NCBI GenBank assembly: GCA_030699905.1
Contig: JAUYKQ010000010.1
Location: 2,554 to 66,553 of the forward strand
DNA from: a bacterium
GTDB taxonomy: Bacteria > Patescibacteriota > Minisyncoccia > Phycocordibacterales > GCA-002787175
Reading direction: 5' to 3'
Length of the DNA stretch: 64,000 nt
In this document: piece after piece, positions 11,755 to 30,246 of the stretch
Layout of the letters: every line of letters begins with the position of its first letter
Position numbering within the stretch: position 1 is the stretch's first letter
Position numbers and translations under genes: made by a program
Notes under the pieces: generated by a model
Told to the model about the DNA's origin: nothing
What the model saw: only the letters and a program-made list of their open reading frames with translations
Databases searched by the model: none

Positions 11755-11871
11755 TTTTTCCGCCGAATTTTCGAAAAATTTGGCACCTTCTTTCAGTGCA
11801 AGACGACCCCGTAGAGACTATGAAATTGAGCAAGATAGTTGGTGCATTTTCTGTCGTAATGCAAAAAATAT

Positions 11872-12639: not shown

Positions 12640-12818
12640 AGATATAGTCCGGACTGCATGGAAACATGTAGAGCGAGGCAGAAATGCCCTCGCCTCCGCA
12701 TCAGGCGGAAGTAACATTTTCAACCCCAGTAGTCCACGCCCTAAACGATGTTCATTTGCTTTTCGGAGTATCGACCCTCTGAGAGGCGTAGCTAACGCGT
12801 TAAATGAACCGCCTGGGT

Positions 12819-12850
<32 letters not shown>

Positions 12851-13267: not shown

Positions 13268-13314
<47 letters not shown>

Positions 13315-13322
13315 TCAAGTCT

Positions 13323-14262: not shown

Positions 14263-14353
14263 AAAACCGCCCGTCAACTCAAGGGAGTTGGGAATACCCG
14301 AAGCGCACGCTTTGCGTGCACTACGGTAAGCTCAATAACAGGGAGTAAGTCGT

Positions 14354-15287: not shown

Positions 15288-15765
15288 AACAAGGCACGGG
15301 TAGCGGAAGCTGCTCGTGGAATATTTCAAGTGAACAATGTCAGGAGCGGATTATCGCGGATAAAAACGCTGATAGACGCCGATGACTGAACGAGTCGATA
15401 TCGCTATCTCTACGGAGTAAGCGGTGGATAAGATTAATATCCTAAAAAAAATCTGACAGACCGGAAAGACGGCACCCGCCGTATCACATGGAATGTGATA
15501 GCGGAAATCCAAAGCACGAAATACTAAATCCTAAACAATATCAAAATTCAAATGACAAAAATTCCAAACAGTAGTCTCTATTTTGAATTTAATATTTTGA
15601 TAATTTGAATTTGTTTCGGATTTCGGTATTAGAATTTCGGATTTTCCGCATCATCGTGTCTCATGTGATGCGGCGGTAAGGAACGGAACAAAACAAAGGA
15701 CAGAAGGTAAAAGAAATTTCAATTTCTAATTGTCTAATTCACATAGATGAAGACAAAGAAGGGTC

Positions 15766-15799
15766 AAAAAAACGGCTAAATATATTTAGCCGTTTTTTT
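15766..15799. terminator. Bidirectional rho-independent terminator: palindrome cggctaaata|tatttagccg flanked by A7 and T7.
   Basis: Perfect palindrome with flanking A/T runs. Confidence 0.6.
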
Positions 15800-15842
15800 G
15801 TTGCTATAGCGCGCTATTTTTGGTATATTTTCAGAGTAATTT

Positions 15843-15919
15843 GCGAGTGTAGCTCAGGTGGTTAGAGCACTCCACTGATAATGGAGAGGTCCCAAGTTCG
15901 AGTCTTGGCACTCGCACCA
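15843..15919 (+). tRNA. tRNA-Ile(GAU), with encoded CCA.
   Basis: gcgagtg ta gctc aggtggtta gagc a ctcca ctGATaa tggag aggtc ccaag ttcgagt cttgg cactcgc a cca: a canonical cloverleaf. Confidence 0.85.
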
Positions 15920-15973: not shown

Positions 15974-16924
15974 TTATTTTCCTCCAACCAAACACACTAC
16001 GGTCCCATCAAAATTTCTGTTTTCTCTTACGGCTTGAATCAAACCGGCTATGGCTAACACCCCGTTTGGAGTCAGTTCCAAATCTGCTTTTTCTTTGACT
16101 AACTTTTGGGCCACCAGAATTTCTTCATTTGAAACAATCCAAGCCCCGCCACCGCTTTTATTTACAAAAAGTTTTACCCGCTCTTTGCGATGCCCGATTT
16201 TATCAACAATGGCGTCAGCGAGCGACTTTTCCTCTGCGACTTCTTCCGCCTTTTTTCCCAAAAGCAGACGAGCAATAGCATTACACCCGCTTGTCTGCGT
16301 AATATGATGGGCTACGAGTTTGTTTCTCCGGTAGATGTCCGCGGCGAGTCCTTCCGCCGTAGTACCCGAAGAACAGGCGGTGAAAATGTCTCTGACGTCG
16401 GGAATCTCCAAAATTTCCTCCGCCAGCTCAAAATATCCGATAAGAGCCGTGTCGTCGGTTGATTGTCGCAAACTCCGCACCTCGCCGCTTTTCGTAAATT
16501 CCAAAAGTTTCTGCTTAGGCCGTTCCTCTTCTATTATTTCAATTCTCCCGTCCTTCGTTTTCGCGAGTTCTTTTTTCTTTTCCTCATTTATATTTTTGCC
16601 GATAAAGACGGTAAGCGACAGGTCCTTTTCCGAAAGTGTTGCGAAGTGTCTTACCGCCGCCAGTCCTGCGTTTCCTGAAGAAGAAATGGCAAAACGGCGC
16701 GTCCCTTCGCTTTTGTACAGGTCAATCATGCGGGGAATAGAACGACCCTTATGCGAGCCGTACGGATGCAAGTCCTCCCGTTTTAAAAACAACCTTCTCA
16801 GCCCCAATGACGCGGTCAGTTTAGGATATTCCTCAGCGGGAGTTACGGTTTTAAATTCAGTTTCTCCGTCACTCCTTTCCGCTGAGTCGTTCCCGACAGT
16901 CAACGTTTTTTCCTGTTTTGACAT
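15974..16924 (-). CDS. PLP-dependent fold-type II enzyme, threonine synthase-like.
   Basis: PLP-lysine motif HPYGSHKGRS (compare ThrC PTGSFKDRG) and the glycine loop SSSGNAG. Confidence 0.6.
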   Translation of the reverse strand: MSKQEKTLTVGNDSAERSDGETEFKTVTPAEEYPKLTASLGLRRLFLKREDLHPYGSHKGRSIPRMIDLYKSEGTRRFAISSSGNAGLAAVRHFATLSEKDLSLTVFIGKNINEEKKKELAKTKDGRIEIIEEERPKQKLLEFTKSGEVRSLRQSTDDTALIGYFELAEEILEIPDVRDIFTACSSGTTAEGLAADIYRRNKLVAHHITQTSGCNAIARLLLGKKAEEVAEEKSLADAIVDKIGHRKERVKLFVNKSGGGAWIVSNEEILVAQKLVKEKADLELTPNGVLAIAGLIQAVRENRNFDGTVVCLVGGK

Positions 16925-17104: not shown

Positions 17105-17272
17105 ATGAAATTAATTTGTATTGAATGCAAAAACGAAATTGATACGTCTCCGTATCCGAACTTGTCAAAAAACCAGACATTGGAATGCAACCACTGTGGC
17201 ATCTCTCTTCTGGTGTCTGACGTAAAAGACAGTGGGGAAGTGGAAGTGGAAATCGCCGATGAGGGTAAATAG
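17105..17272 (+). CDS. Small (55 aa) Cys4 zinc-ribbon protein (CxxC...CxxC) with an acidic C-terminal tail; LysW-like in organisation. Not in the ORF track (<60 aa).
   Basis: MKLICIECKNEIDTSPYPNLSKNQTLECNHCGISLLVSDVKDSGEVEVEIADEGK. Two CxxC pairs ~25 aa apart. Confidence 0.35.
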   Translation: MKLICIECKNEIDTSPYPNLSKNQTLECNHCGISLLVSDVKDSGEVEVEIADEGK

Positions 17273-17346: not shown

Positions 17347-18813
17347 TCACGAATCTTTAATCTGTCTTACCGTTTCCTCTATCATCCCCCTGAAACCGTG
17401 AGAACCGAGAAAGGATACCACATCTCCTTTTCTAATATTCGCTTTGATATACTGAATCACTTCCTCGTCTTTTTCTATGTATTTTGTGTTTACAAGTGTT
17501 TTGGATATCGTATGCGCGAGCTCGGCCCCTCCCATCGGAGCTTCCTTTTCCGGAGAAATTTTCTGTTTTGTAAGGCGAGGGATAATTACCAAGTCAGCAT
17601 CTTTAAAAGCGTCATCATAGGTTTTTTTCGCCATCTTCTCCCGTCCTCCGATATTCGGCTCAAAAATAGCAATGATTTTGGAGTTGCCATAAATAGAGCG
17701 GAGTTCCGCGAGAGTAAAGCGAGCTTTGCTTGGCGAGTGGGCTATGTCGTCAATAATGACAATGTCGTTCGCGTATCGTTTCTCAAGGCGACGTTTTAAG
17801 CCCTTAAATTCCGCCAAGGCCTTTTTTATAGTTTCCGGCTCAATTCCGATTTCTCGGGCCATGGCGAAAGCACCTGTAATATTTTCGGCATTGTAAAGTC
17901 CGATCATCGGCGAATTGATACGATGTGCCGTATTATTGTGGACAATCTCAAAAGTCAGCCCGTTCTTGTCTTGCCGGACATTTTCGTATCGGTACGTAGA
18001 GTCGGAACTTTTTCCGTATGAAGTAACTTGACTGCCTTCAATAACTTTTTTCACGCCCGGGTCGTCTATGTTTGCCAAGATATTTTTTTTGTCAGGAATA
18101 GAGTTAACAAGATTTTGAAAAGTTTCAAAATACGAGTCCTCTGTCTCATACATATCGGCGTGGTCCCAAGACACAGCAGTCAAAAGCAATCGGGTTGGTT
18201 TGTAATACGCAAATTTCGGCTTCTTGTCCCAAATGGCGGCTTGATACTCGTCTCCTTCAACGACACTCAAGTCGCTACCCGTGATTTTTCCGCTCGCGTG
18301 AGATAGCGAAAGTCCGCCAAAAAAATAGTTCGGATTGACTCCGGCGTATTCAAGTATAAAAGAAAGCAGGGCCGATGAAGTCGTTTTTCCCCATGTTCCG
18401 GCTACGACAACGGACTCATTTTTGACAATAAATTTGCCGACCGCCTCGGCAAAAGACAAAATGGGGATGTTTTTTTCTTTGGCAAAAATAATTTCCGGAT
18501 TGCTTTCACTTGTTCCGCCACCACCCGCTACCACCAAGTCAGGAGTTCCCACTCTTTCGTTTCCTCCCTGCTCCACCCCTCCTCTTTGAGGAGGGGTGTC
18601 CGTTCTGACGGACGGGGTGGTGTCTTTTGTTTTCATCCTCTCCGGATGCCAGCCCGCCCAAAATTCCACCCCTGCCTCTTTAAGTGCGTTTGATACGGGT
18701 GGGAAAAAGCCCTTGTCGCTTCCTGTTACTTTGTATCCGGCCGTTTTAAGCGCGACTGCAAGCGCTGATGTTCCAACACCGCAGATTCCAATAATGTGTA
18801 TGTGATTGGTCAT
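17347..18813 (-). CDS. murC: UDP-N-acetylmuramate--L-alanine ligase-like (MurC/Mpl family) with an in-frame low-complexity insertion (TTPSVRTDTPPQRGGVEQGGNERVGTP) encoded by two perfect GC-rich palindromes.
   Basis: N-terminal IHIIGICGVGTSALAVALKTAGYKVTGSD and ATP-binding VVVAGTWGKTTSSALL. Start at MTNHIHIIG. Confidence 0.65.
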   Translation of the reverse strand: MTNHIHIIGICGVGTSALAVALKTAGYKVTGSDKGFFPPVSNALKEAGVEFWAGWHPERMKTKDTTPSVRTDTPPQRGGVEQGGNERVGTPDLVVAGGGGTSESNPEIIFAKEKNIPILSFAEAVGKFIVKNESVVVAGTWGKTTSSALLSFILEYAGVNPNYFFGGLSLSHASGKITGSDLSVVEGDEYQAAIWDKKPKFAYYKPTRLLLTAVSWDHADMYETEDSYFETFQNLVNSIPDKKNILANIDDPGVKKVIEGSQVTSYGKSSDSTYRYENVRQDKNGLTFEIVHNNTAHRINSPMIGLYNAENITGAFAMAREIGIEPETIKKALAEFKGLKRRLEKRYANDIVIIDDIAHSPSKARFTLAELRSIYGNSKIIAIFEPNIGGREKMAKKTYDDAFKDADLVIIPRLTKQKISPEKEAPMGGAELAHTISKTLVNTKYIEKDEEVIQYIKANIRKGDVVSFLGSHGFRGMIEETVRQIKDS

Positions 18814-18892
18814 AAGTTGTTCAATCCGCACTGCGCCCGCCATAGCTTCAAAGCGAAGGCGGGGATGCCGATGATGTGTATGTGTGAAGTCA

Positions 18893-19020
18893 TAATCTCT
18901 AATCAAACCCGAATTCTCTAATCAGACACGAATTAAAGTCGCGAATACTCCCTAATATCAGATTCGAGATTGATTCGGGATAAAATTCTTATTTTACTAT
19001 TCGGGTTTATTAGTGATAAT
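18893..19020. repeat. Intergenic repeat, family 'ctctaatc / attcggg', copy 2, immediately upstream of the murC-like gene.
   Basis: atctctaatcaaacccgaattctctaatcag...gattgattcggg. Confidence 0.5.
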
Positions 19021-19079: not shown

Positions 19080-19571
19080 GTGTATAATTATAGCAGTTTA
19101 ATCAATTTAACTTTAAATATGGAAAAGCATAATAATTTCGAGGCCGTGGCTATTGAGGCAGACATGGAAAATAATGAAAAGGAGGGGTGGTTGGCGCACA
19201 GAGTGTCTACTTTAAGAAGTTTTGTATTAGCTGATGTGGTAAAGGTCATCCAAAAAAAGATGGCTGATGATTTGCGTCTTAAAAAAGCAAGTGACAGGAG
19301 GGGAGGATCTACCGCATTGTCACTAAATTTTTCTGATATGGCAGGGGTTAGAACGGATTTACGGCCAGCGTCACGAGATAGAATCGATTGGCTTTTGGTT
19401 GATAATGACGGTTATGGAAAAGACATCCCTTTAAGTGCCGTATTGGAGGTTGTGAAAAAAGAACTGATGATTAGATATGAAGAAAAGTTGGAGTTGCTTG
19501 GAAGTGATTCGTCGGAAGAAGACCTTTCGCAAGTTGCGTTTGAACCCATTCCCGGTAGAGAAAATGTATAA
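19080..19571 (+). CDS. Hypothetical protein (start possibly MEKHNNF at 19122).
   Basis: ORF. Upstream TTGTAT-17-TATAAT promoter-like sequence at ~19060-19087. Confidence 0.4.
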   Translation: MYNYSSLINLTLNMEKHNNFEAVAIEADMENNEKEGWLAHRVSTLRSFVLADVVKVIQKKMADDLRLKKASDRRGGSTALSLNFSDMAGVRTDLRPASRDRIDWLLVDNDGYGKDIPLSAVLEVVKKELMIRYEEKLELLGSDSSEEDLSQVAFEPIPGRENV

Positions 19572-19640: not shown

Positions 19641-20324
19641 TTAAGATTTGTTGAGGGGTAATTCATTCAATAGCTTTTTTATTGCTTCCGTGTCCGTGTT
19701 CCACTCGTTCCCGTCAAACCATTCCATGCCTTCAAATTGGAGTTTGTACGTGTCAGAAGGTCTCTGGAGTGAACCTATGTAAAAATATTTTCTGCCGTCC
19801 TCTTTTGCTTGTTGAATTGCAAGAAGCATCATGCCGAGACCTGTGTCTTTTGGGGCTTCAGATTCGTAAAAAGGATAGGAGTAGTGAAAAATATTCGGCG
19901 AGTCGTAACAGATTGTGTAAGCAAACGTGTAGCGTGTAGCGTGTAGCGTGTAGCGGAGGAGGCAGTTGAAATTGCTTTTTTCGGGATTAGTTAAAAGTTC
20001 TTTAATTTTGTTCGCGCTAAAGTCCGCATCGCGGGACGCATAAAAGTCCTTGGCCATTTTGCCGATGGGCCAGGAATAGCGTGTATCGTCTGAAGACAAA
20101 GACAAGGGGAGAGGGAGTTTCTCCATCTTCAATCCTTCGCATTTTTTTAAGATACGCCGGTTCTCGCTTGAGAGCTCAAATTTTGAAAGGGCAATTCTCG
20201 CGCTTCTGGTTTGGTGCATTACTCCTTTGCCAAGACGGGTGAAAACATAACCATTGTTGTACAAGGCCTCAACGCTTTCGTGAGAAAAGTCGGTAATGGT
20301 TTTTTCGTTCCAGTGTAAATACAT
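19641..20324 (-). CDS. Aminoacyl-tRNA--protein transferase-like protein (Bpt/Ate1 C-terminal family). Contains an in-frame (gtgtagc)x4 tandem repeat.
   Basis: C-terminal YFYIGSLQRPSDTYKLQFEGMEWFDGNEW resembles the Bpt motif YLGYW...SxKMxYKxxFxPxE. Confidence 0.45.
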   Translation of the reverse strand: MYLHWNEKTITDFSHESVEALYNNGYVFTRLGKGVMHQTRSARIALSKFELSSENRRILKKCEGLKMEKLPLPLSLSSDDTRYSWPIGKMAKDFYASRDADFSANKIKELLTNPEKSNFNCLLRYTLHATRYTFAYTICYDSPNIFHYSYPFYESEAPKDTGLGMMLLAIQQAKEDGRKYFYIGSLQRPSDTYKLQFEGMEWFDGNEWNTDTEAIKKLLNELPLNKS

Positions 20325-20416: not shown

Positions 20417-21595
20417 TCAATGCAGAGCTATCCATATTCCTGTCATTACAAATGCCAAATGTATTATCCAGAAACGCATTATGACTTTCTCCTCGCTCCA
20501 GCCAATAAGCTCAAAATGGTGGTGCAGAGGCGCCATTTTAAAAATCTTTTTGCCAAAAATGGTTCGGGATGCTATTTGCAATACTACCGACAGAGCTTCC
20601 ACGTAAAACATAAAAGCCAAGAAAACCAAGGCCACCATTTGATTTATAACTATGGCATTTATTGCCAAAAGAGCCCCAAGTCCCAAAGAACCGACATCAC
20701 CCATCTGAAATCTCGCCGGTTTGATGTTAAAATAAGTATAAGTTACAAGGGCTCCAACCACTGTCGCGTTTAAAATCGCAACTTCCGTAAAACCGCCCAT
20801 CCAAGAAAGGATCAAAAGGGAACCGAAGGTTGGAATAAGCATACCGCCGGCAAGTCCGTCCATACCGTCCGCGATATTCACCGCGTTGGCTGTAAACATC
20901 ACTACAAAAATAATAAGCGGAATCAAAAGAATCCCGATATTTAAAAAGCTGTCTGCTCCTGCCGGGCCTAAGAATGTTGAACCTCCGTTTTCTAAAAAAG
21001 GAATGTAGATTTCCCTCCAGTGTTCTCCAAGTTTAAAAAATATCCACCATGCCGTAATGGCGCCCGCCAAAAATTGCAAAATAAGTTTCTCGTGAACATG
21101 AACGCCTTTGCCGGGGTGCGACCCTATCCACATGGACATTCTCTTGAAAACAACCCAAGGCAGAGTGATGGCGAGCCATACTCGGGCTTTTAAGTCGTGA
21201 TGCACGCGGATAAGAAGCAGTGTTTGTTTCAGGCCACGACTCCTTCTTTTTGTGCCGAAAATGTTCAGGATGTCGTCTAAGGCGCCGAGAAAGGCAGAAA
21301 GAAGCATAACTCCAATCGGTACCCAAGTAAAACTACGTTCCCAGTTAAAAAGTAGGGTGATGACCGCGACGGTAAATATGACAAGAATCCCACCCATTGT
21401 CGGGGTGTTCATTTTGCTTTTGCGGGACTCCAAAAGCAGTGTCGGGTCATAGCCACCACGCCTTCCCACGGTAATGTCGTATTTATACAAAAAATGCGTC
21501 ATTATCGGCGCTAAGCCAAAAGACACCACTATGGCCATGGGAATAAAGCCGATAATCAAGGAAAGGTTGGATGCGTCTAAAACAACTTCAGACAT
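20417..21595 (-). CDS. mraY: Phospho-N-acetylmuramoyl-pentapeptide transferase MraY.
   Basis: 10-TM protein with MraY motifs NAVNIADGMDGLAGG and HHHFE. 392 aa. Confidence 0.9.
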   Translation of the reverse strand: MSEVVLDASNLSLIIGFIPMAIVVSFGLAPIMTHFLYKYDITVGRRGGYDPTLLLESRKSKMNTPTMGGILVIFTVAVITLLFNWERSFTWVPIGVMLLSAFLGALDDILNIFGTKRRSRGLKQTLLLIRVHHDLKARVWLAITLPWVVFKRMSMWIGSHPGKGVHVHEKLILQFLAGAITAWWIFFKLGEHWREIYIPFLENGGSTFLGPAGADSFLNIGILLIPLIIFVVMFTANAVNIADGMDGLAGGMLIPTFGSLLILSWMGGFTEVAILNATVVGALVTYTYFNIKPARFQMGDVGSLGLGALLAINAIVINQMVALVFLAFMFYVEALSVVLQIASRTIFGKKIFKMAPLHHHFELIGWSEEKVIMRFWIIHLAFVMTGIWIALH

Positions 21596-21741: not shown

Positions 21742-23757
21742 CTAAAACCATTTAAGTCGCCTGATGCTAACTTCTGACTTTTTCGCTCTTTCTTGGGTGA
21801 GGTTTTCCGCGCCCATTTTTCCATTTTCCACCCATTTTTGCTCGGAAACGGGTTTTGTAACGTCCGTGATTTCTATAACGCCCTCTCTCACGCCGTGGCC
21901 GTAAGGTCCATCAGAAGGCCATGCCAGCGAGTGAACGTATTTTAACTTCAGGGGAGTTTCTTCTTGGCGCTTGACTTCGGAAATCACGACCATGTGGTTA
22001 AACTGCCTCTCGTCTTCACTGTCGTGCAACATGCTTATAAAGTCGCCCGGGGACACTTCGTCAATTCTCACTTCTTTGCTGTTTGCGTCGTGGGAAAAAG
22101 TGGCTACCGAGGTGTTTTGTATCGTGCGCAGACGAGAGAGAAGCGCTCGCGAGAACGATTTTGAATTTGAAAAAGAGATACGAGATTTTAAAGCTCCACA
22201 GCCGCGAGCGATGCCCTCGGCATTTAAAACGTGGTAGGCAAAACCGGAGCAGTCCACGCCGATCCTGTTGTCAACCAGGATTTTGATGATATTTTCTTTA
22301 TCAAGTTTGGAAAAATCCATGTGGTTTTTCATAAAGATAAGTTCTGCCTCTTCTTTTATTTCCTCAACACTGCCTTTTCCTATGGCCGCTTTTACCGCTC
22401 CGCGAATTCCCGATCTGCGGTTGTTGAAGTAGGGGCAGGGCACAGGCACCGGAAGGGGTAGGTGAAGGTAGTTGTTCACAATGGCAATAGCTTCCGGCAA
22501 AAGTTTTTTTGTCGTGACATTAAACAGAGGGAGAAGACGTTTTATCTTTTCGCCGTTTTGATTTAAGTTTTTTTGATCGGCAAGCACGCTGTCTTGGCTT
22601 TGTATTTGCAAGATGGCGGCGTTCGGCTTGTCTTCATTTTTCGCGTGAACCGAAAGTCCTTCTTTTCCAAATTTGTCAGTTTTAAGAAGAGGGGCTGTGT
22701 TTAACCAGTCGTCAGTTAGGCGCTGAATTAGCTGTCCGCCATTTCTAAGTTCCGTGGAAGGCAGGTCGGGCAGGGGCATTTCCAGAAGAGCTAAGAGGTG
22801 CTCTTCAAAAACAGAAAGGCCGGTAGGGTCGTTTTTCTTCTGCAAAGTGGCTTCCCACGCGACATTGGCTGTTTGTCTGGCGTTTACCTCCAAAAGATAA
22901 ATTCTACGCGTTTTTTCGTCCATCGCAAAATCCGCCCCGAAAAGTCCGCGCCACTTATGTTTTTGGAAAATCATGCCGATGTCGCTCATTATTTCTCTTA
23001 TCTGCAACGTCTGTTCTTTGGATAGCATTTTCTTGGGTAGTCCCCAGTCGTTGCCTACGGATGAAAAAGGCAAGTCGGTAAAAGGAGACAGTCCGGTAAT
23101 TTGAAAACTTATGTTGCCGTGAGCTATTTTCGTATCAAAGACCACGGCGTTTGTCGTAAACACCGGCCCTTTTATGTATTCGCTCAAGCGGACTTCTCTT
23201 TCCGGAAATTTCGTTTTAAGTTTTGAAAGTTCGGCGTTGTTTGTTACAAGCAGTGTTCCTTCGCCTGAATGGGCGTGGTTAAACTGTATTATTGAGGGAT
23301 ATTTTTTCAGGTTAATTTCTTTTATCTTTGAAATCACATGAGGAGGCAGAAACTTTGACGAGTTCTCAAGCCACTGTCCTTGACTCGTTTTTTCTTCGGC
23401 CAGACGGGCGATCTCTGACGGCGGATTTAAAAGAGTGATGCCCAGTTCTTTTGCCGTTCTTTCAATGGCGAGAGTGTTCTTGAAAACCAATAAACCGGCC
23501 TTGCCAAGGCGGGAAAAAAGCTCTATTGACTCTTCGCGTTTCAAAAGCTCGTGCGTGTCAAGTTTTTTTTCTGAAACAACAACCGTTACGTTTTCTTTCG
23601 TTCCATAAAGAGGGTCTGCATCTTTTCGCGCTTTGTTAGTGATAATATGGTATCCCTCGGTAGGCAATGGCAAGCCACACGCCCTTTCCAAGTCGCGGGT
23701 AACATAGACCACGGGGTTGTTCTTGATATTTTCGTACAACGGAGAATGTTGACTCAT
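21742..23757 (-). CDS. Fusion protein: N-terminal ATP-grasp domain plus C-terminal papain-like (NlpC/P60- or CHAP-like) Cys/His peptidase domain. Putative cell-wall peptide ligase/hydrolase.
   Basis: ATP-grasp core LLEVNARQ. C-terminal VDCSGFAYHVLN...FNHMVVISE arranged as Cys...His. Confidence 0.5.
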   Translation of the reverse strand: MSQHSPLYENIKNNPVVYVTRDLERACGLPLPTEGYHIITNKARKDADPLYGTKENVTVVVSEKKLDTHELLKREESIELFSRLGKAGLLVFKNTLAIERTAKELGITLLNPPSEIARLAEEKTSQGQWLENSSKFLPPHVISKIKEINLKKYPSIIQFNHAHSGEGTLLVTNNAELSKLKTKFPEREVRLSEYIKGPVFTTNAVVFDTKIAHGNISFQITGLSPFTDLPFSSVGNDWGLPKKMLSKEQTLQIREIMSDIGMIFQKHKWRGLFGADFAMDEKTRRIYLLEVNARQTANVAWEATLQKKNDPTGLSVFEEHLLALLEMPLPDLPSTELRNGGQLIQRLTDDWLNTAPLLKTDKFGKEGLSVHAKNEDKPNAAILQIQSQDSVLADQKNLNQNGEKIKRLLPLFNVTTKKLLPEAIAIVNNYLHLPLPVPVPCPYFNNRRSGIRGAVKAAIGKGSVEEIKEEAELIFMKNHMDFSKLDKENIIKILVDNRIGVDCSGFAYHVLNAEGIARGCGALKSRISFSNSKSFSRALLSRLRTIQNTSVATFSHDANSKEVRIDEVSPGDFISMLHDSEDERQFNHMVVISEVKRQEETPLKLKYVHSLAWPSDGPYGHGVREGVIEITDVTKPVSEQKWVENGKMGAENLTQERAKKSEVSIRRLKWF

Positions 23758-23827: not shown

Positions 23828-23968
23828 AATTACGAAATACTTGCTTTTTACCCCCCCCACTCGGAAAGCTCCCAAAAAAGTGACCGCTCCAAGGGCGCTT
23901 GCCGGGGGCTCAAGTCACTTTTTTGTGACTTTCCTCGTGGGGGGGTGCCTGCCGTATTTCGTAACTCA
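23828..23968. repeat. ~140-nt long imperfect palindrome with nested stems (cgaaatac/gtatttcg, tacccccccc/gggggggt, aaaaaagtgac/gtcacttttttg) in the divergent region between the ATP-grasp gene and rsmI. MITE-like or regulatory.
   Basis: Inverted symmetry is visible. The C8/G7 homopolymer arms are atypical for this AT-rich genome. Confidence 0.55.
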
Positions 23969-24035
23969 AAGTGTGTTCAGTATTCATTTCTCGCATGCTC
24001 ATTGCGTGTTTAGCGTTCCGTGGTATTGTACTTTA

Positions 24036-24728
24036 ATGATGAAAAGTGATGGCATTTTATACGTTGTAGCCACTCCAATAGGTAATATGGAAGATATCAC
24101 CCTGCGCGCTTTGCGGACGCTTAAAGAGGCCGATATCATTCTCTGTGAAGACACCCGCGTAACGAAGCGGATTTTAGACAGGTACGAAATAAAAGATAAA
24201 AAGTTGTCCGTTTGGAACGAAGAGAGAAGTGGCGTATCTGCCGATAAAGTCACTGAATGGCTTGGAGAGGGGAAGAAGATCGCGCTTGTTACAGATGCTG
24301 GTACACCGGGAATTTCAGATCCGGGTGGAAAGCTTCTAATATCAATCAAGGAGAGCTTGCCTGAAGTTAAAATTGAGGCAATTCCCGGCCCAAGCGCACT
24401 TACATCTGCGCTTTCTGTCGCAGGTATTCCCCTGCACGATTTTGTTTTCCTGGGTTTTTTGCCTCACAAAAAGGGAAGGGAAACTATTTTTAAAGAAATT
24501 GCCACCGCAAAAAGGCCGTATGTTTTTTACGAGTCGCCGCATCGCATTTTAAAAGCCCTTGAGTCCCTTAAAAAGTTTTCGCCGGAGAAAAAAATTACCA
24601 TTTGTCGTGAGCTTACCAAAATCCACGAAGAAGTCGTATCCGGCACGGCTAACGAGCTTTTGGAGTATTTTGAAAATAACAAGGAAAAGGTAAGAGGGGA
24701 GTTTGTGGTAATAATATCGGATCTCTAA
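24036..24728 (+). CDS. rsmI: 16S rRNA (cytidine1402-2'-O)-methyltransferase RsmI.
   Basis: ILYVVATPIGNMEDITLRALRTLKEADIILCEDTRVTKRIL...VTDAGTPGISDPG: the tetrapyrrole-methylase-fold RsmI signature. Start at MMKSDG. Confidence 0.8.
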   Translation: MMKSDGILYVVATPIGNMEDITLRALRTLKEADIILCEDTRVTKRILDRYEIKDKKLSVWNEERSGVSADKVTEWLGEGKKIALVTDAGTPGISDPGGKLLISIKESLPEVKIEAIPGPSALTSALSVAGIPLHDFVFLGFLPHKKGRETIFKEIATAKRPYVFYESPHRILKALESLKKFSPEKKITICRELTKIHEEVVSGTANELLEYFENNKEKVRGEFVVIISDL

Positions 24729-24765
24729 TCAAATTCTAATTTTTCCTCGAATAATCACTAATAAA
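24721..24765. repeat. Intergenic repeat, family 'ctctaatc', copy 4.
   Basis: atctctaatcaaattctaatttttcctcgaataatcactaat. Confidence 0.4.
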
Positions 24766-24766
24766 T

Positions 24767-25012
24767 ATGGACACAGTAACTACAATAGGGACAATAGGTG
24801 CGGGGATTATCCTTGTTTTCTTTCTTCTAAACCAGGCGCACAAAATAGATAGAGACAGTATGGCTTATGATGTGGGGAACTTTATAGGAGGAGGGCTTTT
24901 GGTCGTATACTCAATCTTCATACAATCTTGGCCTTTCCTTGCTTTAAATATCGTCTGGACGCTCTTTTCTTTCAAAGACATGTTTTTAAATTTTAAAAAA
25001 CGCCACTTTTGA
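24767..25012 (+). CDS. Small membrane protein (2 TM), hypothetical.
   Basis: ORF with hydrophobic segments. Confidence 0.4.
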   Translation: MDTVTTIGTIGAGIILVFFLLNQAHKIDRDSMAYDVGNFIGGGLLVVYSIFIQSWPFLALNIVWTLFSFKDMFLNFKKRHF

Positions 25013-25080
25013 CAGGCGGTAAAACCGGCGTTTTGCTTTGAGCGAAGCGGAACTTTAAACTTTTAACTTGTAACTAGAAA

Positions 25081-25107
25081 ATAGACCGGCTACAGCCGGT
25101 CTATTTT
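25081..25107. terminator. Bidirectional terminator (atagaccgg/ccggtctat), overlapping the stop codon of the PCD gene.
   Basis: 9-bp perfect stem with A/T flanks. Confidence 0.55.
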
Positions 25108-25416
25108 CGCCGCCAATATAAAATCGTTTTCCGTAAGACCGCCGATGGAGTGAGTGTAAAGAGTAACTTCCACGTATCCCCATCCGAATTTAATATCCGG
25201 ATGATGGCCCTCTTTTTCGGCTATTTCGCCGATTTTATTTACGAAAGCAAGCGCTTCGGCAAAATCTTTAAATTCAAATTTACGCTTAAGTCGCTCGTGT
25301 TCTTCCCATGTCCAGTCCGGAACTTGCCGTGAAAATTCCTTGATTTCATTCAACATCAAGTGCCCCCTGCCCAGCTCGCATGATTCGCATGTTTCTTTGT
25401 GGAGTTCTTTACTCAT
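25090..25416 (-). CDS. Pterin-4a-carbinolamine dehydratase (PCD/PhhB).
   Basis: EGHHPDI...GWGYVEVTLYTHSIGGLTENDFILAAKID. Start at MSKEL. Confidence 0.7.
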   Translation of the reverse strand: MSKELHKETCESCELGRGHLMLNEIKEFSRQVPDWTWEEHERLKRKFEFKDFAEALAFVNKIGEIAEKEGHHPDIKFGWGYVEVTLYTHSIGGLTENDFILAAKIDRL

Positions 25417-25578
25417 ATGTTTGTATTTTACCATAAGTAATCTTGAATTACGAAGCATAGCGTGGTTGGTGTGGTCGGTGGACGGCATCATAAACTTATC
25501 TTCAGTTAGTGGCAGCCAAGGTTACGGGTTTACATTTTCCGCGCTCGGTACATAATTAAGTAAGATAAGGAGGTATGC

Positions 25579-25929
25579 ATGAAAAATACAAAAGAAAAGG
25601 TCGCTGACCTGGAAGCGGCAGAGGCCCGTCTCAGAAGAACTTTAAATGAGGCGGTAGAGCAAGAGGAGAAGCTCAATAAAGAGCTTGATAGGGCTACGCA
25701 CCTAAGGGTGGAACTTGTGAAGCTCCGTGCAGAGTTTAGTGCCGAACGAGAATCTTTGCCCGCCGATCCGAATGCCATTGTAAGCTGGCGAAAGCGGTTT
25801 ACTGATGCCATTAAGGAGATCAGTCACGCCTGCGACGCCATTTATCAGCGCATGCAAAAGGCCCAAAGGGCCGCGGAAAAACGCAACACGGCTTCAGAAG
25901 AAGCCGAGGAAGAGAAAAAGAAAAAATAA
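25579..25929 (+). CDS. Coiled-coil protein with a Lys/Glu-rich tail, hypothetical. Strong SD aaggagg 7 nt upstream.
   Basis: ORF with a canonical RBS. Confidence 0.5.
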   Translation: MKNTKEKVADLEAAEARLRRTLNEAVEQEEKLNKELDRATHLRVELVKLRAEFSAERESLPADPNAIVSWRKRFTDAIKEISHACDAIYQRMQKAQRAAEKRNTASEEAEEEKKKK

Positions 25930-25934
25930 TCACA

Positions 25935-25976
25935 AGGCCGCGCGTTTTTCCACCTGCGCGGCCTTTACTTTTTTAT
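25935..25976 (+). terminator. Rho-independent terminator (aggccgcgc/gcgcggcct plus T-run).
   Basis: GC stem followed by ttactttttt. Confidence 0.6.
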
Positions 25977-26056
25977 GTTAAGATATCTCATGTACCACAT
26001 TTCCTATTCACTTATTTACAGTATTCGGATATAATCTGTAGATTCGCATTATAATT

Positions 26057-26401
26057 ATGGCCAAATCAAAAACTCTCATAACATTAAGCATTTTTCTGAT
26101 TTTGTTGCCTTTTTTGGGTTTTCCGATATCATGGGATCGTTTTTTTGTTGCAAGCATAGGAGTTGTCTCCGGTCTTTTAGGTGTGTCATATTACAGAAAA
26201 GAAAAAGAAAAAATGAGAAGGCAAAATAGAAAAAGTGTGGCGACTGATACTCCGATATTTATGGAAAACAAGCTCGCCGGCAGTCCTTATTTTAACAAAA
26301 ACGACTCATATTCTCCTTACGGCAAAGGACTTTCCAAAGAGGGAGTGAATGATATGACTAACCAAAAAGTCCGAAATGCCGAGACCACTGAAACAAATTA
26401 A
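26057..26401 (+). CDS. Small membrane protein, hypothetical.
   Basis: ORF with an N-terminal double TM. Confidence 0.4.
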   Translation: MAKSKTLITLSIFLILLPFLGFPISWDRFFVASIGVVSGLLGVSYYRKEKEKMRRQNRKSVATDTPIFMENKLAGSPYFNKNDSYSPYGKGLSKEGVNDMTNQKVRNAETTETN

Positions 26402-27701
26402 AAGGGAAGAAAAAAAGCAAAATCCACGCGTTTTTCTTTTACTGGCCGGAGGGTCTTTTTCTTTGATGTTTGTTGCCGGTTTTTTATCTTTTTATTTTAC
26501 TCCGGAAGCGCTTCCTTTTGAATACCAATCTCTTGAAAACGGCAGGGCCAGTATTTCTTTTCCTTTGGATGTTAAAGAAGAAAAAGATAAGAAGAACAAT
26601 GTCTTTGTCGCGCATGTCGCCACACCCGAAGCAGTCAAAGCCATCTACATGACGAGCTGTGTGGCAGGCACGCCGTCTTTCCGAGAGAAACTCATTCGTC
26701 TCGCGGAAGAAACGGAAATAAACAGCATAATCATAGATGTCAAGGACTACAGCGGTCGTTTGGCTTTTCCTCCGGAGAGCGAGAGTTTGTCCCACGCTTA
26801 CCCAAGCACGTGCGCCGTGGCAGACCTAAGAGGGGTCGTTGAAGATTTGCATGACAGAGGCATTTACGTTATAGCTCGCATCACGGTTTTTCAAGATCCT
26901 CATCTGGCCATGTTGCGTCCGGACCTTGCAGTTTTGAAGGAAAGCGACCGCAGTGTCTGGAAAGACAACAAGGGCTTGTCTTTTACCGACCCCGGAGCCA
27001 GAGAAGTGTGGGATTATACAGTGCGAATAGCAAAGGAAACGCATGCTTTGGGTTTTGACGAGCTTAACTTTGACTACATACGTTTTCCTTCAGACGGTCC
27101 GATGAAAGACATTTATTTTCCCAAAAGCCAAAACCGTCCCAAAGCGGATGTCCTGGAGGATTTTTTTAAATTTCTTTCCGAAGAACTTGATTACACGGAT
27201 GACTCTGGCCATAAGCCGGTACTTTCCGCCGACCTTTTCGGCATGACCACGAACGCCGTGTCAGGTTTTGACTTAAACATAGGCCAGGTTTGGGAAAAAA
27301 CCTTGCCTTACTTTGACTATATTTCACCGATGGTCTACCCATCACACTATCCTTCCGGATTTAACGGCTGGAAAGACCCCAATAAACATCCTTACGAGAT
27401 CGTAAACTTTGCCATAAGCGAAGCTGTAAAGAAGACCGTAGCGACTTCCACCAGAGTATTTACCATAGGTTCCACTGAAATAGCTTCAACTTCTCCCGCG
27501 TTATACACCAAAAAAGCATACGATAAAAATAAAGTTCGCCCTTGGCTTCAGGATTTTGATTATGGAGGCAACTACGACATAGCGGAAGTCAAAGCGCAAA
27601 TACAGGCGGTGTATGACGTCGGTCTTTCTTCTTGGTTGCTTTGGTCGCCAAGCAATGTTTATACTCGGGGTGCCCTTTTGTCGTCTCAAGATGTTAACTG
27701 A
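26376..27701 (+). CDS. Membrane-anchored putative TIM-barrel glycoside hydrolase (GHL/DUF4015-like).
   Basis: N-terminal TM. GTPSFREKLIRLAEETEINSIIIDVKDYSG and DELNFDYIRFP blocks typical of the glycoside-hydrolase-like families. Confidence 0.4.
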   Translation: MPRPLKQIKREEKKQNPRVFLLLAGGSFSLMFVAGFLSFYFTPEALPFEYQSLENGRASISFPLDVKEEKDKKNNVFVAHVATPEAVKAIYMTSCVAGTPSFREKLIRLAEETEINSIIIDVKDYSGRLAFPPESESLSHAYPSTCAVADLRGVVEDLHDRGIYVIARITVFQDPHLAMLRPDLAVLKESDRSVWKDNKGLSFTDPGAREVWDYTVRIAKETHALGFDELNFDYIRFPSDGPMKDIYFPKSQNRPKADVLEDFFKFLSEELDYTDDSGHKPVLSADLFGMTTNAVSGFDLNIGQVWEKTLPYFDYISPMVYPSHYPSGFNGWKDPNKHPYEIVNFAISEAVKKTVATSTRVFTIGSTEIASTSPALYTKKAYDKNKVRPWLQDFDYGGNYDIAEVKAQIQAVYDVGLSSWLLWSPSNVYTRGALLSSQDVN

Positions 27702-27749
27702 ACGAAACAGAAATTTTACAAATTTACCTACATGATGTATTATAAGTGT

Positions 27750-27829
27750 GGGCCGGACTGCGGATTTGTGCCAAAAAGGAGGTGTGCTTCCCTTCTTTCT
27801 TTTAGGGTCCGCGGTTCCGGCCCTTTTTG
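27750..27829 (+). terminator. Long hairpin (gggccggactgcgg / ccgcggttccggccc) plus T5; candidate terminator for the upstream gene.
   Basis: 14-bp stem with a 45-nt loop followed by tttttg. Confidence 0.4.
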
Positions 27830-27876
27830 TATCCCGAGTTTTCATATATCTGCATCTTGAGTTATCCCCACCCTTC

Positions 27877-27904
27877 TTGACTCTATTTTAAAAAGCAGTA
27901 GAAT
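27877..27904 (+). promoter_or_regulatory. Sigma70-like promoter TTGACT-16-TAGAAT driving the candidate ncRNA.
   Basis: ttgact (27877-82), 16-nt spacer, tagaat (27899-904). Confidence 0.45.
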
Positions 27905-27911
27905 GTTTATC

Positions 27912-28301
27912 CAGGGTACATCATGAAGCACGGGTTTGTTTATTGCGGTGCGGACGTACCGCGCAAATCCTATGATGCGGGGAAAAATGCGAGGGCGATG
28001 CCATAGGCATACGCTCTCAAGAATCAAAGTTGTTATGGCACGAGAAGACGTAGTGGTGCGAGATCGTCTGGCGATGGAAGTGTTTGACGACAAAAATGGC
28101 CCGAGGAATCCATTGGAGATTCCCGGAAGCAGCGAAAGAATGGCACTCCTTAAAATGTGTCCACGGGGAGTCTCGGATAAGAGATGGCCCGAGGGGGTGA
28201 GGGATGCCGGCGGTAACACAATCTGTCGGGCTGGTTGAGAAGGTGAAGTCAGTCGGATCTTTTCCTGGCGCGAAGTGGAACTTCGCGCCAGTGTTTTTTT
28301 T
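27912..28301 (+). ncRNA. Candidate structured RNA (~390 nt), GC-richer than its flanks, promoter-to-terminator bounded. Class unknown: no RNase P, tmRNA or SRP signature found. Alternatively a 5' leader for the downstream ATPase gene, or a degraded small gene.
   Basis: Bounded by the promoter (27877-27904) and a strong terminator (28265-28301). Only low-complexity non-protein-like ORFs on either strand. Confidence 0.35.
28265..28301 (+). terminator. Strong rho-independent terminator (ctggcgcgaagt / acttcgcgccag plus T8).
   Basis: 12-bp perfect stem, 3-nt loop, tgtttttttt. Confidence 0.7.
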
Positions 28302-28413
28302 ATATTCTTTAAATAGTTGTATAATATAACCAACAACCTACTGCATACCGCCAACAACAAAAGTAAAGAAAACCCCGCTTTATTTTTTGCATAGTTGTAA
28401 GTTGTTGATTGCC

Positions 28414-30246
28414 ATGGAGGACTCCAACAAAATCACATACTTGGCCCAAACCGATTCCAGAAATCGTAAAGTGCCTTTCGGCATAAAAGCTCGCGACCGT
28501 TCGAGACATGTTTACGTTATCGGCAAAACAGGAATGGGAAAGTCCACTCTTCTTGAAAACATGGCCGTCCAGGATATGAGAGAAGGCAACGGCATGGCCT
28601 TCATAGACCCGCACGGCAAAACGGCCGAGCTTTTGCTTGATTACGTTCCGGAACACAGAATAAAAGACGTTTTGTATTTCGCCCCTTTTGACATGGAGTA
28701 TCCTATATCTTTCAATATTCTGGAAGACGTTGGCCCGGACAGACGCCACTTGGTGGCCAACGGTCTTATGAGTACTTTTGAAAAAATTTGGGTGGACGCT
28801 TGGAGCGCCCGCATGTCATATATTTTAAACAACACCATTCTCGCCCTTTTGGAATTTCCGGATGCCACGCTCCTCGGCGTAAACCGCATGTTTGCCGACA
28901 AAGAGTACAGAAAAAGAGTGGTGGACAATATAACAGACCCGTCCATCAGATCATTCTGGGTGGACGAATACGCCAAGTACACTGACCGTTACACTCAAGA
29001 GGCCACTCCGGCAATACAAAACAAAGTCGGCCAGTTTACCTCAAACCCGCTTATACGAAACATCATAGGCCAGCCACGGTCATCTTTTGACTTGCGTAAA
29101 ATAATGGACGAAAAGAAAATCGTAATCGTCAATCTCTCAAAAGGGCTCGTGGGAGAGGGGAACGCGAACTTGCTTGGCTCCATGCTTATAACCAAAATGT
29201 ACCTATCGGCCATGAGTCGCGCCGACACCCATGAAGTTGAGTCGCGCCTTCCGAATTTCTACCTTTACGTTGATGAATTTCAGTCCTTTGCCAACAAATC
29301 GTTCGCCGACATTTTAAGCGAAGCCAGAAAGTATAAACTGAATCTGACCATCGCTCATCAATATATAGAGCAAATGGAGGAAGAAGTTCGAGCCGCCGTA
29401 TTCGGCAATGTCGGCACCACGGTCGCTTTTCGTGTAGGAGCTTTTGATGCCGAGGTTTTGGAAAAAGAGTTCGCCCCGCAGTTTACGGCGGAGGATTTGG
29501 TAAATCTCGGGTTTGTCCAAATTTATTTAAAGCTCATGATAGACGGTATTTCGTCTCCGCCTTTTTCGGCGACTACTTTGCCTCCCATTGAAAAACCCCT
29601 TGTCTCTTATAAAGACCGAGTCATCGCCTCTTCGCGGGAAGTTTTCGGCCAGCCCCGTTTCAAAGTGGAGGAAAACATATGGGCTTGGCATTCTGAATTT
29701 AAATACGAAAACAATCGTTCGGATCCCAGAGATAATCGTTCGGATCTAAGAGAGAAACCGAAAAACACCAAGCCGGATATCGGCAACAGGCCGAACGTTC
29801 ACATGGAAAGGCAGAATGCTCCATATCGTGGCAACTCTTCGGAAGACAGGAGAAACCCGACAAAAAACAGAAACGAAATACCCATAAACAAAACGAATGT
29901 TTTTACAGGAAACGGAAACGCTGTTTCCGGTGGCCCCAAAAGTCCCTCTTTGCATCTTTCTAATCTTCAAGCGCCAAGAAAAGTTGACGTTGAGCAGAAA
30001 AAAGCGCCGACCGGACAGCACCTTTCTGAACTTAGAGCCGCTTTAGCGTCAGTTCTTGAATCGGAAAACAACAAAAATAACACTGCCGGCGCTCTGAAAG
30101 AGAGCCAATTTAAGAGGCCGGAACCCAGACCGGTAAATCCGCAAAGGCCTGAAGAAAAAAAAGAACCCAAAGCTCCGTCCTCCTTGGCAGGGCAGGAGGT
30201 GCCGGAAAATATTTTGAGGGAAACTTTGCGGGTGGAAGGGGAGTGA
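28414..30246 (+). CDS. P-loop ATPase of the TraD/TraG/VirD4 coupling-protein / DUF87 family, with a ~200-aa disordered, charged C-terminal tail.
   Basis: Walker A VIGKTGMGKST, Walker B LYVDEFQ, conserved TrwB-like blocks. Tail rich in R/N/P/E/K. Confidence 0.6.
   Translation: MEDSNKITYLAQTDSRNRKVPFGIKARDRSRHVYVIGKTGMGKSTLLENMAVQDMREGNGMAFIDPHGKTAELLLDYVPEHRIKDVLYFAPFDMEYPISFNILEDVGPDRRHLVANGLMSTFEKIWVDAWSARMSYILNNTILALLEFPDATLLGVNRMFADKEYRKRVVDNITDPSIRSFWVDEYAKYTDRYTQEATPAIQNKVGQFTSNPLIRNIIGQPRSSFDLRKIMDEKKIVIVNLSKGLVGEGNANLLGSMLITKMYLSAMSRADTHEVESRLPNFYLYVDEFQSFANKSFADILSEARKYKLNLTIAHQYIEQMEEEVRAAVFGNVGTTVAFRVGAFDAEVLEKEFAPQFTAEDLVNLGFVQIYLKLMIDGISSPPFSATTLPPIEKPLVSYKDRVIASSREVFGQPRFKVEENIWAWHSEFKYENNRSDPRDNRSDLREKPKNTKPDIGNRPNVHMERQNAPYRGNSSEDRRNPTKNRNEIPINKTNVFTGNGNAVSGGPKSPSLHLSNLQAPRKVDVEQKKAPTGQHLSELRAALASVLESENNKNNTAGALKESQFKRPEPRPVNPQRPEEKKEPKAPSSLAGQEVPENILRETLRVEGE

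Follow-up and report, generated by a model that had tools for sequence, protein, structure and literature searches.

In the genome of a patescibacterium (NCBI GenBank assembly GCA_030699905.1), a protein of 671 aa that joins an ATP-grasp ligase to an NlpC/P60 cysteine amidase is encoded next to mraY. The gene lies in a 64,000-nucleotide stretch of contig JAUYKQ010000010.1 (positions 2,554 to 66,553 of the forward strand), referred to here as the window, and positions are those of the window unless another locus is named. An earlier note on this DNA, made from the letters and a list of open reading frames (ORFs), had described an N-terminal ATP-grasp ligase, a C-terminal Cys/His module and a murC/mraY neighbourhood, and had suggested that the protein might edit peptide stems. 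The analysis reported here establishes that the ORF encodes a two-enzyme protein with the catalytic signatures kept in both halves. It also places the protein in a gene set, conserved across Patescibacteria in both major superclades, that comprises the ligase, the amidase, MraY, an ATE/Fem-like protein, a MurC-like ligase, a fold-type-II pyridoxal phosphate (PLP) enzyme and an acidic, LysW-like carrier protein of 54-57 aa; a NUDIX hydrolase is often part of it too. The protein and its parts map as follows.

21742..23757, minus strand: ATP-grasp ligase and NlpC/P60 amidase fusion, 671 aa (from the ORF list and translation; ATG start, stop codon at 21742-21744)
22513..23757, minus strand: ATP-grasp ligase half, residues 1-415, with a pre-ATP-grasp domain, the ATP-grasp core and a small C-terminal beta subdomain
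23254..23271, minus strand: H163-x-G165-x-G167-T168, Gly-rich loop of the ATP-grasp B-domain (invariant in 24 fusions; codons verified)
22876..22890, minus strand: E290-V-N292-A-R294, the Mg2+/phosphate-binding E-x-N-x-R motif (invariant in 24 fusions; codons verified; within the Pfam ATP-grasp_3 and CPSase_L_D2 alignments)
22264..22500, minus strand: family-specific N-terminal helical subdomain of the C-terminal module, residues 420-498, with the motif P442-Y-x-N-N...R452...G460-K461-G (invariant in 81 C-modules and 24 fusions; helices in the model)
21745..22263, minus strand: NlpC/P60 (papain-like) catalytic core, residues 499-671
22249..22251, minus strand: Cys503, predicted nucleophile, in G-V-D-C-S-G-F (invariant in 24 fusions and 81 free modules; codon verified)
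21994..21996, minus strand: His588, predicted catalytic residue, in an N-H-hydrophobic strand (invariant in 24 fusions and 81 free modules; starts beta-strand 588-598 of the model; codon verified)
21931..21933, minus strand: His609, predicted third triad residue, in Y-x-H-S (invariant in the fusions and in at least 90% of free modules; close to where strand 601-611, its partner in the hairpin, ends)

The ORF is real, and the motifs quoted in the note, LLEVNARQ, VDCSGFAYHV and FNHMVVISE, fall at residues 288-295, 501-510 and 586-594. Its product is identical to entry P0001, a protein of an NCBI metagenome-assembled genome (MAG) annotated 'hypothetical protein'. A word-indexed search returned 172 homologues, and an exhaustive search of 1.84 billion representatives returned 1085 at E<=0.001 and 262 at E<=1e-30. 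Among the homologues are 24 independent full-length fusions (37-48% identity), and the architecture therefore cannot be put down to a chance ORF or to faulty assembly. AlphaFold2 modelled the full-length protein with a pLDDT of 94.8 and a pTM of 0.88. A profile search of the full-length protein against PDB sequences gave no match; since such searches yielded nothing full-length, and for the C-terminal module only the Cys motif of LytE, relatives had to be sought by fold. No transmembrane (TM) or signal-peptide-like segment was detected in the 671-aa protein (maximum KD19, a hydropathy value, 1.12), nor in any of the 120 free C-terminal modules scanned, and the fusion and the free modules are accordingly predicted to be cytoplasmic enzymes.

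The N-terminal half has the three-domain ATP-grasp fold and carries the Mg-ATP/acyl-phosphate residue set of the superfamily, with D276, like the two motifs above, invariant in 24/24 fusions. By motif analogy these residues are assigned to Mg-ATP and acyl-phosphate roles, and the H163-T168 stretch would form the flexible loop that closes over ATP. Curated models reach the window protein only below their cut-offs (ATP-grasp_3, 16.6 vs 23.2 bits; PRK06524, 48.5 vs 684). PF02655 is precomputed on about half of the homologues, and PRK06524, an uncharacterised NCBIfam model described as 'biotin carboxylase'-like, is matched by 24/24 fusions, far under its cut-off. Subsets of the 24 also match LdmS, PurT, BesA, MfnD and, weakly in nine cases, a putative pseudomurein ATP-grasp model. 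Structurally, this half falls in the PurK / L-amino-acid-ligase / PylC / BesA group of ATP-grasp carboxylate-amine ligases. Its nearest relatives couple free amino-acid carboxylates to amines, such as the Lys epsilon-amine (PylC) or peptide amines (PGM1). It does not have the RimK-type ATP-grasp domain of the LysX, ArgX and RimK loaders, and Gsp synthetase is absent from its top 60 ATP-grasp structural matches. No D-aspartate ligase model appeared among the NCBIfam matches at E<=1 for the window protein or E<=0.01 for the 24 members.

The C-terminal module, modelled by itself at a pLDDT of 95.8, has the papain-like alpha+beta fold of NlpC/P60 enzymes, as the note had supposed, and retains the Cys-His-(His/polar) triad residues. 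A non-catalytic fold for this part and a family other than ATP-grasp for the N-terminal part were both considered, and neither came true. The hairpin register of the model would place His609 close to His588 in space. In fold searches the module scored 10.6 against MepS, 10.0 against CwlO and 9.7 against both LytE and the YkfC-like structure 3h41; its NlpC/P60 score was 10.7 vs 6.9 for the Gsp CHAP domain. Since just ~110-125 of its 252 residues align to NlpC/P60 structures, the helical subdomain (residues 420-498) is an addition to the fold, and a further insertion of ~35 residues follows the Cys helix. At the level of sequence the kinship is faint. The module profile has a single match among PDB sequences, the Cys motif of LytE (G-F-D-C-S-G-F, E 0.15). 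Alignment by hhalign to an E. coli MepS sequence recovered the central PGD-hydrophobic motif only (74% probability) and was not used for the triad. Scanned singly, the 81 modules matched Pfam NLPC_P60 (75), Amidase_6 (30) and CHAP (26), which form one clan, all below threshold (best E 2.4e-5), and the window protein misses the PF00877 gathering score (14-16.6 bits vs 23). The module is a divergent branch of the NlpC/P60 superfamily (clan CA, C40) lying outside PF00877 as defined by its gathering rule, and is a predicted intracellular enzyme hydrolysing amide bonds.

Ligase and amidase are more often separate proteins. Adjacent ligase/amidase pairs across 85 loci comprise 63 split and 5 fused cases, to which the fused pair of the window is added, and the fusion is the rarer arrangement, derived from a pair of neighbouring genes that is conserved throughout Patescibacteria. 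In loci L001-L005, for example, the two genes are split and co-directional, with 4-10 bp between them. The N-terminal half is also found by itself (~400 aa) or joined to an intact NUDIX domain (~540 aa; one such form, P0030, has a perfect Nudix box), and the C-terminal module occurs alone as proteins of ~255 aa. When the ATP-grasp domains were arranged in a rough neighbour-joining tree without support values, fused forms were interspersed with unfused ones: the nearest neighbours of the fused P0006 and P0011 are the unfused P0117 and P0047. Fusion or fission has therefore occurred more than once. An apparent fusion of the C-module to MraY in locus L082 was dismissed because a stop codon at 6522 separates two adjacent genes.

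The murC/mraY neighbourhood inferred in the note proved genuine, and the architecture is, as the note also held, not a standard mur-cluster component. The neighbouring genes are the following.

20417..21595, minus strand: MraY, phospho-MurNAc-pentapeptide translocase (TIGR00445, 193.9 bits, above cut-off), 146 bp downstream of the fusion
19641..20324, minus strand: ATE/Fem-like protein, GNAT-fold and aminoacyl-tRNA transferase-like, 227 aa (NCBIfam arginyltransferase models, E 2e-7)
17347..18906, minus strand: MurC-like Mur ligase (Pfam Mur_ligase N, M and C domains; TIGR01082 274 bits, below its cut-off of 335; Mpl 220 bits)
17105..17272, plus strand: LysW-family zinc-ribbon carrier-like protein, 55 aa, CxxC...CxxC, with the C-terminus ...EIADEGK (ORF; PF21344)
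15974..16924, minus strand: fold-type-II PLP enzyme (PALP), 316 aa, distantly threonine-synthase-like (Pfam PALP, 4.7e-31), divergent partner of the carrier gene
26376-27701, plus strand: DUF4015 putative glycosyl hydrolase
28387-30246, plus strand: VirD4/TraG-like coupling ATPase

Scanning GTDB species representatives gave 80 loci, all from Patescibacteria by record title and mostly from Magasanik-, Taylor- or Nomurabacteria or Paceibacterota. More distant matches (24-30% identity) come from Woese-, Gottesman- and Dojkabacteria and from Microgenomates. Third-party-annotation (TPA) MAG titles reading 'Gammaproteobacteria' or 'Saccharibacteria' are probably unreliable, the clusters under them being of Paceibacteria or Microgenomates type (L008, L009, L032, L049, L069, L071, L076, L079, L084 and many 'Saccharibacteria' TPA_asm records). 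By tblastn, a common order is shared by ~60 species-level loci: VirD4-like, DUF4015 and RsmI genes on the minus strand, then ATP-grasp, C-module, MraY, a 225-aa ATE-like protein, MurC-like and PALP, all on the plus strand. The flank formed in the window by the RsmI methyltransferase, DUF4015 and VirD4/TraG-like genes (23841-30246, plus strand) is syntenic in ~40 loci; beyond the VirD4/TraG-like gene lie glycosyltransferases and a PKD/LTD-domain protein. MraY adjoins the C-module in ~60 loci, Microgenomates included, and murC stands 2.8 kb from the fusion gene.

The gene between MraY and MurC is kept as well. Its product has weak similarity to arginyl/leucyl-tRNA-protein transferases, and the orthologue in L082 passes Pfam ATE_C (33.3 vs 25 bits). 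No solved structural relative of it was found by sequence, and it is a candidate aminoacyl-tRNA-dependent branch-adding enzyme. A 163-aa ORF between this gene and MurC in the window (19080-19571, plus strand) has no Pfam or NCBIfam match and no tblastn match in 85 loci, and is probably spurious or lineage-specific. The PALP protein is matched best by threonine synthase (PDB 2zsj, E 1e-8), with further weak matches to threonine synthases and dehydratases. PADLOC returned no match for the fusion, the carrier, PALP or the ATE-like protein that would point to a defence system, and promoter and terminator scans, which gave weak consensus matches only, were not used.

In Microgenomates, the module genes are relinked in different orders within true mur/dcw operons, with PALP directly followed by the ATP-grasp gene.

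L082: Mur ligase, ATE-like, MurC, C-module, MraY, PALP, ATP-grasp
L075: Ddl, Mur ligase, MraY, C-module, ..., PALP, ATP-grasp, FtsW
L084: ..., MurC, MurA, MraY, C-module
L076 and L081: His-phosphatase, PAP2, C-module, Mur ligase, ..., PALP, ATP-grasp

Upstream of the C-module in the last two (L076 1875-3808; L081 6743-8678) stand a histidine-phosphatase-family gene and a PAP2 lipid phosphatase resembling undecaprenyl-pyrophosphate phosphatases; in this Microgenomates subgroup, they are a further link to the lipid-carrier cycle. An intact NUDIX hydrolase also recurs, fused to the C-terminus of the ATP-grasp protein in 17/120 homologues and encoded elsewhere as a free gene of 168-186 aa between the carrier gene and MurC. 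The corresponding interval of the window holds no NUDIX gene.

NUDIX sites: L003 1220-2848; L086 13122-14765 and 8216-8767; L087-L089 ~8140-8770; also L034, L038, L042 and L052
Second ATP-grasp, RimK/YheCD-like, 303 aa, between the ATE-like gene and MurC: L003 7810-8718; L042 ~10713-11555

The carrier-like protein encoded between MurC and PALP, on the opposite strand and unannotated, has the sequence MKLICIECKNEIDTSPYPNLSKNQTLECNHCGISLLVSDVKDSGEVEVEIADEGK and contains a LysW-type zinc-ribbon globular domain. PF21344 was the top Pfam family for all six carrier sequences tested and its gathering score was exceeded by four of them, the window copy reaching 21.4 bits against a gathering score of 27. 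The best PDB relatives are LysW proteins of Thermus and Thermococcus (3wwl and 5k2m_E). Homologues were found in 52 loci in addition to the window, always divergent from PALP, and wherever a locus covers the MurC-PALP interval the carrier is almost always there (50/51). When four loci were instead picked through the carrier gene, the same cluster surrounded it in 4/4 and the ligase and amidase were there in 3/4; a separate NUDIX gene was also present in these loci, placed between carrier and MurC. Together with the 50/51, this is the genomic co-occurrence with a LysW-family carrier that typifies LysX-type ligases. The locus L087, on a 1.23-Mb chromosome (OZ246405.1, 6042-13042), holds the carrier, PALP, two NUDIX genes, MurC, the ATE-like gene and MraY. 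A 337-aa 'gene' at the ligase/amidase position there is a low-complexity spurious ORF, unrelated by hhalign.

The most constant feature of the carrier is its last residue. Among 53 copies, 48 end in DEGK and Lys is last in every readable one; the divergent Microgenomates carriers end in ...LEEEK, ...IEEEK or ...VVRGK, so that the terminal Lys alone is universal. The 120 database homologues listed give the same picture (120/120 ending in K, 117/120 in DEGK, most with precomputed PF21344). No readable copy has the C-terminal Glu whose gamma-carboxylate bears the substrate in LysW. Retention of the terminal Lys across deep divergence, while the preceding residues vary, suggests that the tail, like that of LysW, is functional. 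At 90% identity the family forms 1439 clusters, which range from 54 to 74 aa, include no fusion and are annotated 'hypothetical' or 'RpoP'. The median isoelectric point (pI) is 4.6 for the carrier, 9.5 for the ligase and 9.0 for the amidase. The RimK/YheCD-like ATP-grasp listed above was entertained as the true loader of the carrier, its clade being the one that loads LysW in known systems. It occurs in just two loci, L003 and L042, and is therefore not a general partner of the carrier. The fusion-family ATP-grasp is the only one consistently present in the cluster.

Elsewhere in the window, the 16S rRNA gene is interrupted (region 10183-15919), with Rfam small-subunit matches at 10183-11392 and 12576-13354. 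Inserted between them are a tRNA-Ile(GAT)-like element (11676-11754) and the first part of an ORF for a LAGLIDADG endonuclease (11872-12639). Another LAGLIDADG ORF (14452-15099) comes after a group-II-intron D1-D4-like match (14009-14078), and a second tRNA-Ile(GAT) lies at 15843-15919. Insertions of this kind in rRNA genes are typical of bacteria of the candidate phyla radiation (CPR).

What the two joined enzymes act upon bears directly on the bifunctional stem-editing enzyme put forward in the earlier note. The ligase plus amidase domains stand; the stem peptide as their substrate is not the best-supported reading, and the LysW-family carrier in the gene set makes a different, carrier-protein substrate possible for the pair. 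We lean, tentatively, toward a cycle in which the ligase loads and the amidase unloads the terminal Lys of the carrier, with the PLP enzyme acting in between, to provide a building block of the stem peptide. The analysis establishes the folds, catalytic residues, cytoplasmic location, split/fused relation, linkage, carrier family and invariant Lys; every substrate and every step of the cycle is inferred. The ATP-grasp domain would convert a small-molecule (amino-acid) carboxylate into an acyl-phosphate and join it to the terminal Lys, with the epsilon-amine as the likeliest acceptor, giving a LysW system of inverted polarity in which a Lys amine replaces the Glu carboxylate. The PLP enzyme would then transform the tethered residue, whose alpha-amine stays free, and the NlpC/P60 domain would cut the (iso)peptide bond, freeing the product and regenerating the carrier. 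The product would serve the neighbouring Mur ligases as a building block of the stem peptide. Fusion would place loading and release on one polypeptide docking the same acidic carrier.

This cycle is preferred because the three enzyme classes of the module, a ligase, a hydrolase and a PLP enzyme for the modifying step, are exactly those of known amino-group carrier protein (AmCP) pathways. Acylation of Lys by the ligase is plausible in such a scheme, since PylC, PGM1, BesA, LdmS and MfnD ligate amino acids or acylate amines. The cytoplasmic location of both enzymes is compatible with a soluble protein substrate, and the charge complementarity between an acidic carrier and a basic ligase and amidase counts in its favour.

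Several observations weigh against carrier loading. The carrier gene lies 4-5 kb from the ligase and amidase genes in Paceibacteria-type loci, adjoining PALP and MurC instead; the ligase falls outside the LysX clade; and L087, with its carrier gene, has no ATP-grasp or C-module within 8 kb. To our knowledge, a terminal Lys in place of Glu has no characterised precedent, and the basic pI of the enzymes may simply follow proteome composition. Moreover, the most constant neighbour of the amidase is MraY, its nearest structures cleave gamma-D-Glu-diamino-acid bonds of real stem peptides, and the recurrent NUDIX fusion and linkage, unexplained by a carrier, suggests a nucleoside-diphosphate-linked substrate such as a UDP-MurNAc-peptide. 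These last points speak at the same time for direct tailoring of the stem, the idea of the note in sharper form and the main rival, less likely but live, in which the ATP-grasp would add a PLP-supplied (D-)amino acid to a free amine or carboxylate of UDP-MurNAc-tri/pentapeptide and the NlpC/P60 enzyme would trim or proofread precursors before MraY makes lipid I. The linkage of the amidase to MraY and the Mur ligases is tight and ancient, PALP directly precedes the ATP-grasp in Microgenomates, the pseudomurein ATP-grasp model is weakly matched, and an ATP-grasp branch ligase sharing its operon with an amino-acid-supplying racemase is a precedent (PMC4155827; PMC2922099). Direct tailoring leaves the strictly co-conserved carrier and its invariant Lys unexplained, however, and the NCBIfam searches matched no model of the D-aspartate-ligase type; a cytoplasmic amidase cutting its neighbours' precursors would also be futile unless highly selective.

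Salvage of muropeptides would make different use of the same amidase: stem fragments imported from hosts or necromass would be cut at the gamma-D-Glu-diamino-acid bond, as by YkfC in Bacillus recycling, and the ATP-grasp would join the recovered amino acids again into a dipeptide for reuse by a MurC/Mpl-like ligase. The cytoplasmic amidase has YkfC-like and AvPCP-like structures among its best matches, the ligase is similar to the L-amino-acid ligases that form dipeptides, the adjacent Mur ligase scores almost as high with Mpl as with MurC, and CPR bacteria lack amino-acid biosynthesis but retain the peptidoglycan pathway (PMC7143001). We nevertheless regard salvage as unlikely, for the transporter, LD-carboxypeptidase and epimerase of known recycling operons are not linked to the module, and the carrier, the PLP enzyme and the ligase-amidase fusion would all go unexplained. 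Also unlikely is a reading in which the carrier is a ribosomally pre-loaded scaffold, whose encoded terminal Lys would itself be the substrate. With the peptide bond shielding its alpha-amine, the Lys would be alkylated at the epsilon-amine by the PLP enzyme, through beta-replacement on a donor of the phospho- or acetyl-serine type, to give a diamino-dicarboxylic acid as a potential substitute for meso-diaminopimelate. The NlpC/P60 enzyme would remove the modified residue as a carboxypeptidase and the ATP-grasp would re-add Lys to the tail, in the manner of tyrosination and detyrosination. Were this so, Patescibacteria would build a non-canonical cross-linking wall residue on a protein, giving both a new type of carrier pathway and a new peptidoglycan chemotype. 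Two further readings fare worse. That the domains make and hydrolyse one small-molecule amide (e.g., a thiol or polyamine conjugate), as in GspSA, with the balance set by redox at the catalytic Cys and unrelated to the wall, is highly improbable: the proposal rests on architecture alone with the domain order reversed, the amidase is far nearer NlpC/P60 than Gsp CHAP, Gsp synthetase is outside the top structural matches, and the conserved context is one of cell-wall genes, not thiol or polyamine metabolism. Ddl is the usual ATP-grasp of dcw/mur clusters, and a ligase does occur together with a racemase and a peptidase in Van clusters, yet identification of the ligase half with Ddl is effectively refuted. 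It has low structural similarity to Ddl and falls outside that family, and locus L075 also encodes a canonical Ddl (37% identity to an E. coli DdlB sequence, E 1e-65), so that the module ATP-grasp is not the D-Ala-D-Ala ligase of that organism.

Patescibacteria make up a large share of bacterial diversity and keep a full peptidoglycan pathway without amino-acid biosynthesis, and their mraY/murC region conserves a gene set labelled 'hypothetical' in databases. The fusion itself is moderately unusual; the conserved, unannotated, CPR-wide module is the surprising part. If loading and release of the carrier are correct, the module would be the first lysine-tailed LysW-type system and the first tied to cell-wall synthesis, and NlpC/P60 enzymes would gain a new role as an intracellular release step. 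Should direct tailoring hold instead, CPR stem peptides would bear modifications from a new ligase/proofreading pair. On either account, the module offers a testable entry, through small soluble proteins, to CPR envelope biochemistry and a lineage-specific candidate target. The literature searched contained no published description of the fusion, the cluster or Lys-tailed LysW homologues, which is not proof of absence elsewhere, and nothing in it linked ATP-grasp, NlpC or LysW proteins with Patescibacterial peptidoglycan.

Among characterised systems, the ligase half is related to BL00235 (3vot), RizA, BacD, LdmS (7r8p), PylC (4ffl), PGM1 (3wvq), BesA (8yi6) and MfnD, at 10-15% identity only. 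Fusion to a peptidase, or linkage with mur genes or a LysW-like protein, is seen in none of these. Two carboxylases, PurK and biotin carboxylase, score equally well, and the chemistry of the ligase therefore cannot be read from its fold. The amidase shares its catalytic fold and the G-x-D-C-S-G / H / H signature with the NlpC/P60 endopeptidases AvPCP (2evr), MepS, CwlO, LytE and the YkfC-like 3h41, which cleave gamma-glutamyl amide bonds of stem peptides. Unlike these, it is predicted to be cytoplasmic, has no signal peptide, SH3b, LysM or other wall-binding domain, carries the helical subdomain of ~80 residues (PYxNN...R...GKG) and the ~35-residue insertion, and stays under the Pfam threshold.

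Pairs of opposed enzymes are also known. The tyrosination and detyrosination of tubulin by TTL and its counterpart resembles the module by analogy only, in that an ATP-grasp adds and a papain-like cysteine peptidase removes an encoded C-terminal residue; that system is eukaryotic and regulatory, not biosynthetic, and the TTL clade is structurally far from the module ligase. AslA/Aslfm with RacD/Racfm, of lactococci and enterococci, is a case of an ATP-grasp tailoring peptidoglycan precursors: it acylates the Lys epsilon-amine via an acyl-phosphate and is encoded with the supplier of its unusual amino acid (PMC4155827). No amidase or carrier belongs to the AslA system, and a sequence-family match to it was undetected in the NCBIfam searches. 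The RacD/Racfm racemase is PLP-independent, as against the fold-type-II PLP partner in the module. GspSA of E. coli (2io7/3a30) and trypanothione synthetase (2vpm) are the only characterised precedent for the domain combination, a papain-like Cys/His amidase and an ATP-grasp-type synthetase acting on the same bond within one polypeptide. Their domain order is reversed, however, both domains belong to other clades, and the window protein falls outside the Gsp family.

The closest parallel in logic is with the AmCP pathways, in which the ATP-grasp LysX or ArgX loads the C-terminal Glu of LysW, a PLP enzyme (LysJ) acts on the tethered intermediate and a hydrolase (LysK) releases it (PMC12998189). 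As in the pathways of Thermus and archaea (3wwl, 5k2m), the carrier of the module is an acidic PF21344 zinc ribbon of ~54 aa whose flexible C-terminal tail is conserved. Encoded together with it are, again, an ATP-grasp ligase, an amide hydrolase and a PLP-dependent enzyme, and an acidic carrier faces basic enzymes. The tail, by contrast, ends in Lys (DEGK or EEEK) in place of Glu, that of LysW being EDWGE. The module draws its ligase from the PurK / L-amino-acid-ligase group instead of RimK/LysX; it has an NlpC/P60 cysteine amidase where AmCP pathways have an M20 metallohydrolase; and its PLP enzyme is of fold-type II and threonine-synthase-like, not an aminotransferase. Genes for a LysZ/LysY kinase or reductase are missing from the module, and its context is mur/dcw, not lysine or arginine biosynthesis. 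The 55-aa protein would therefore work like LysW at most by analogy, through a different attachment chemistry. Resembling AmCP systems in logic and carrier family and departing from them in the C-terminal Glu and the RimK-type loader, the module may work like one without being a member.

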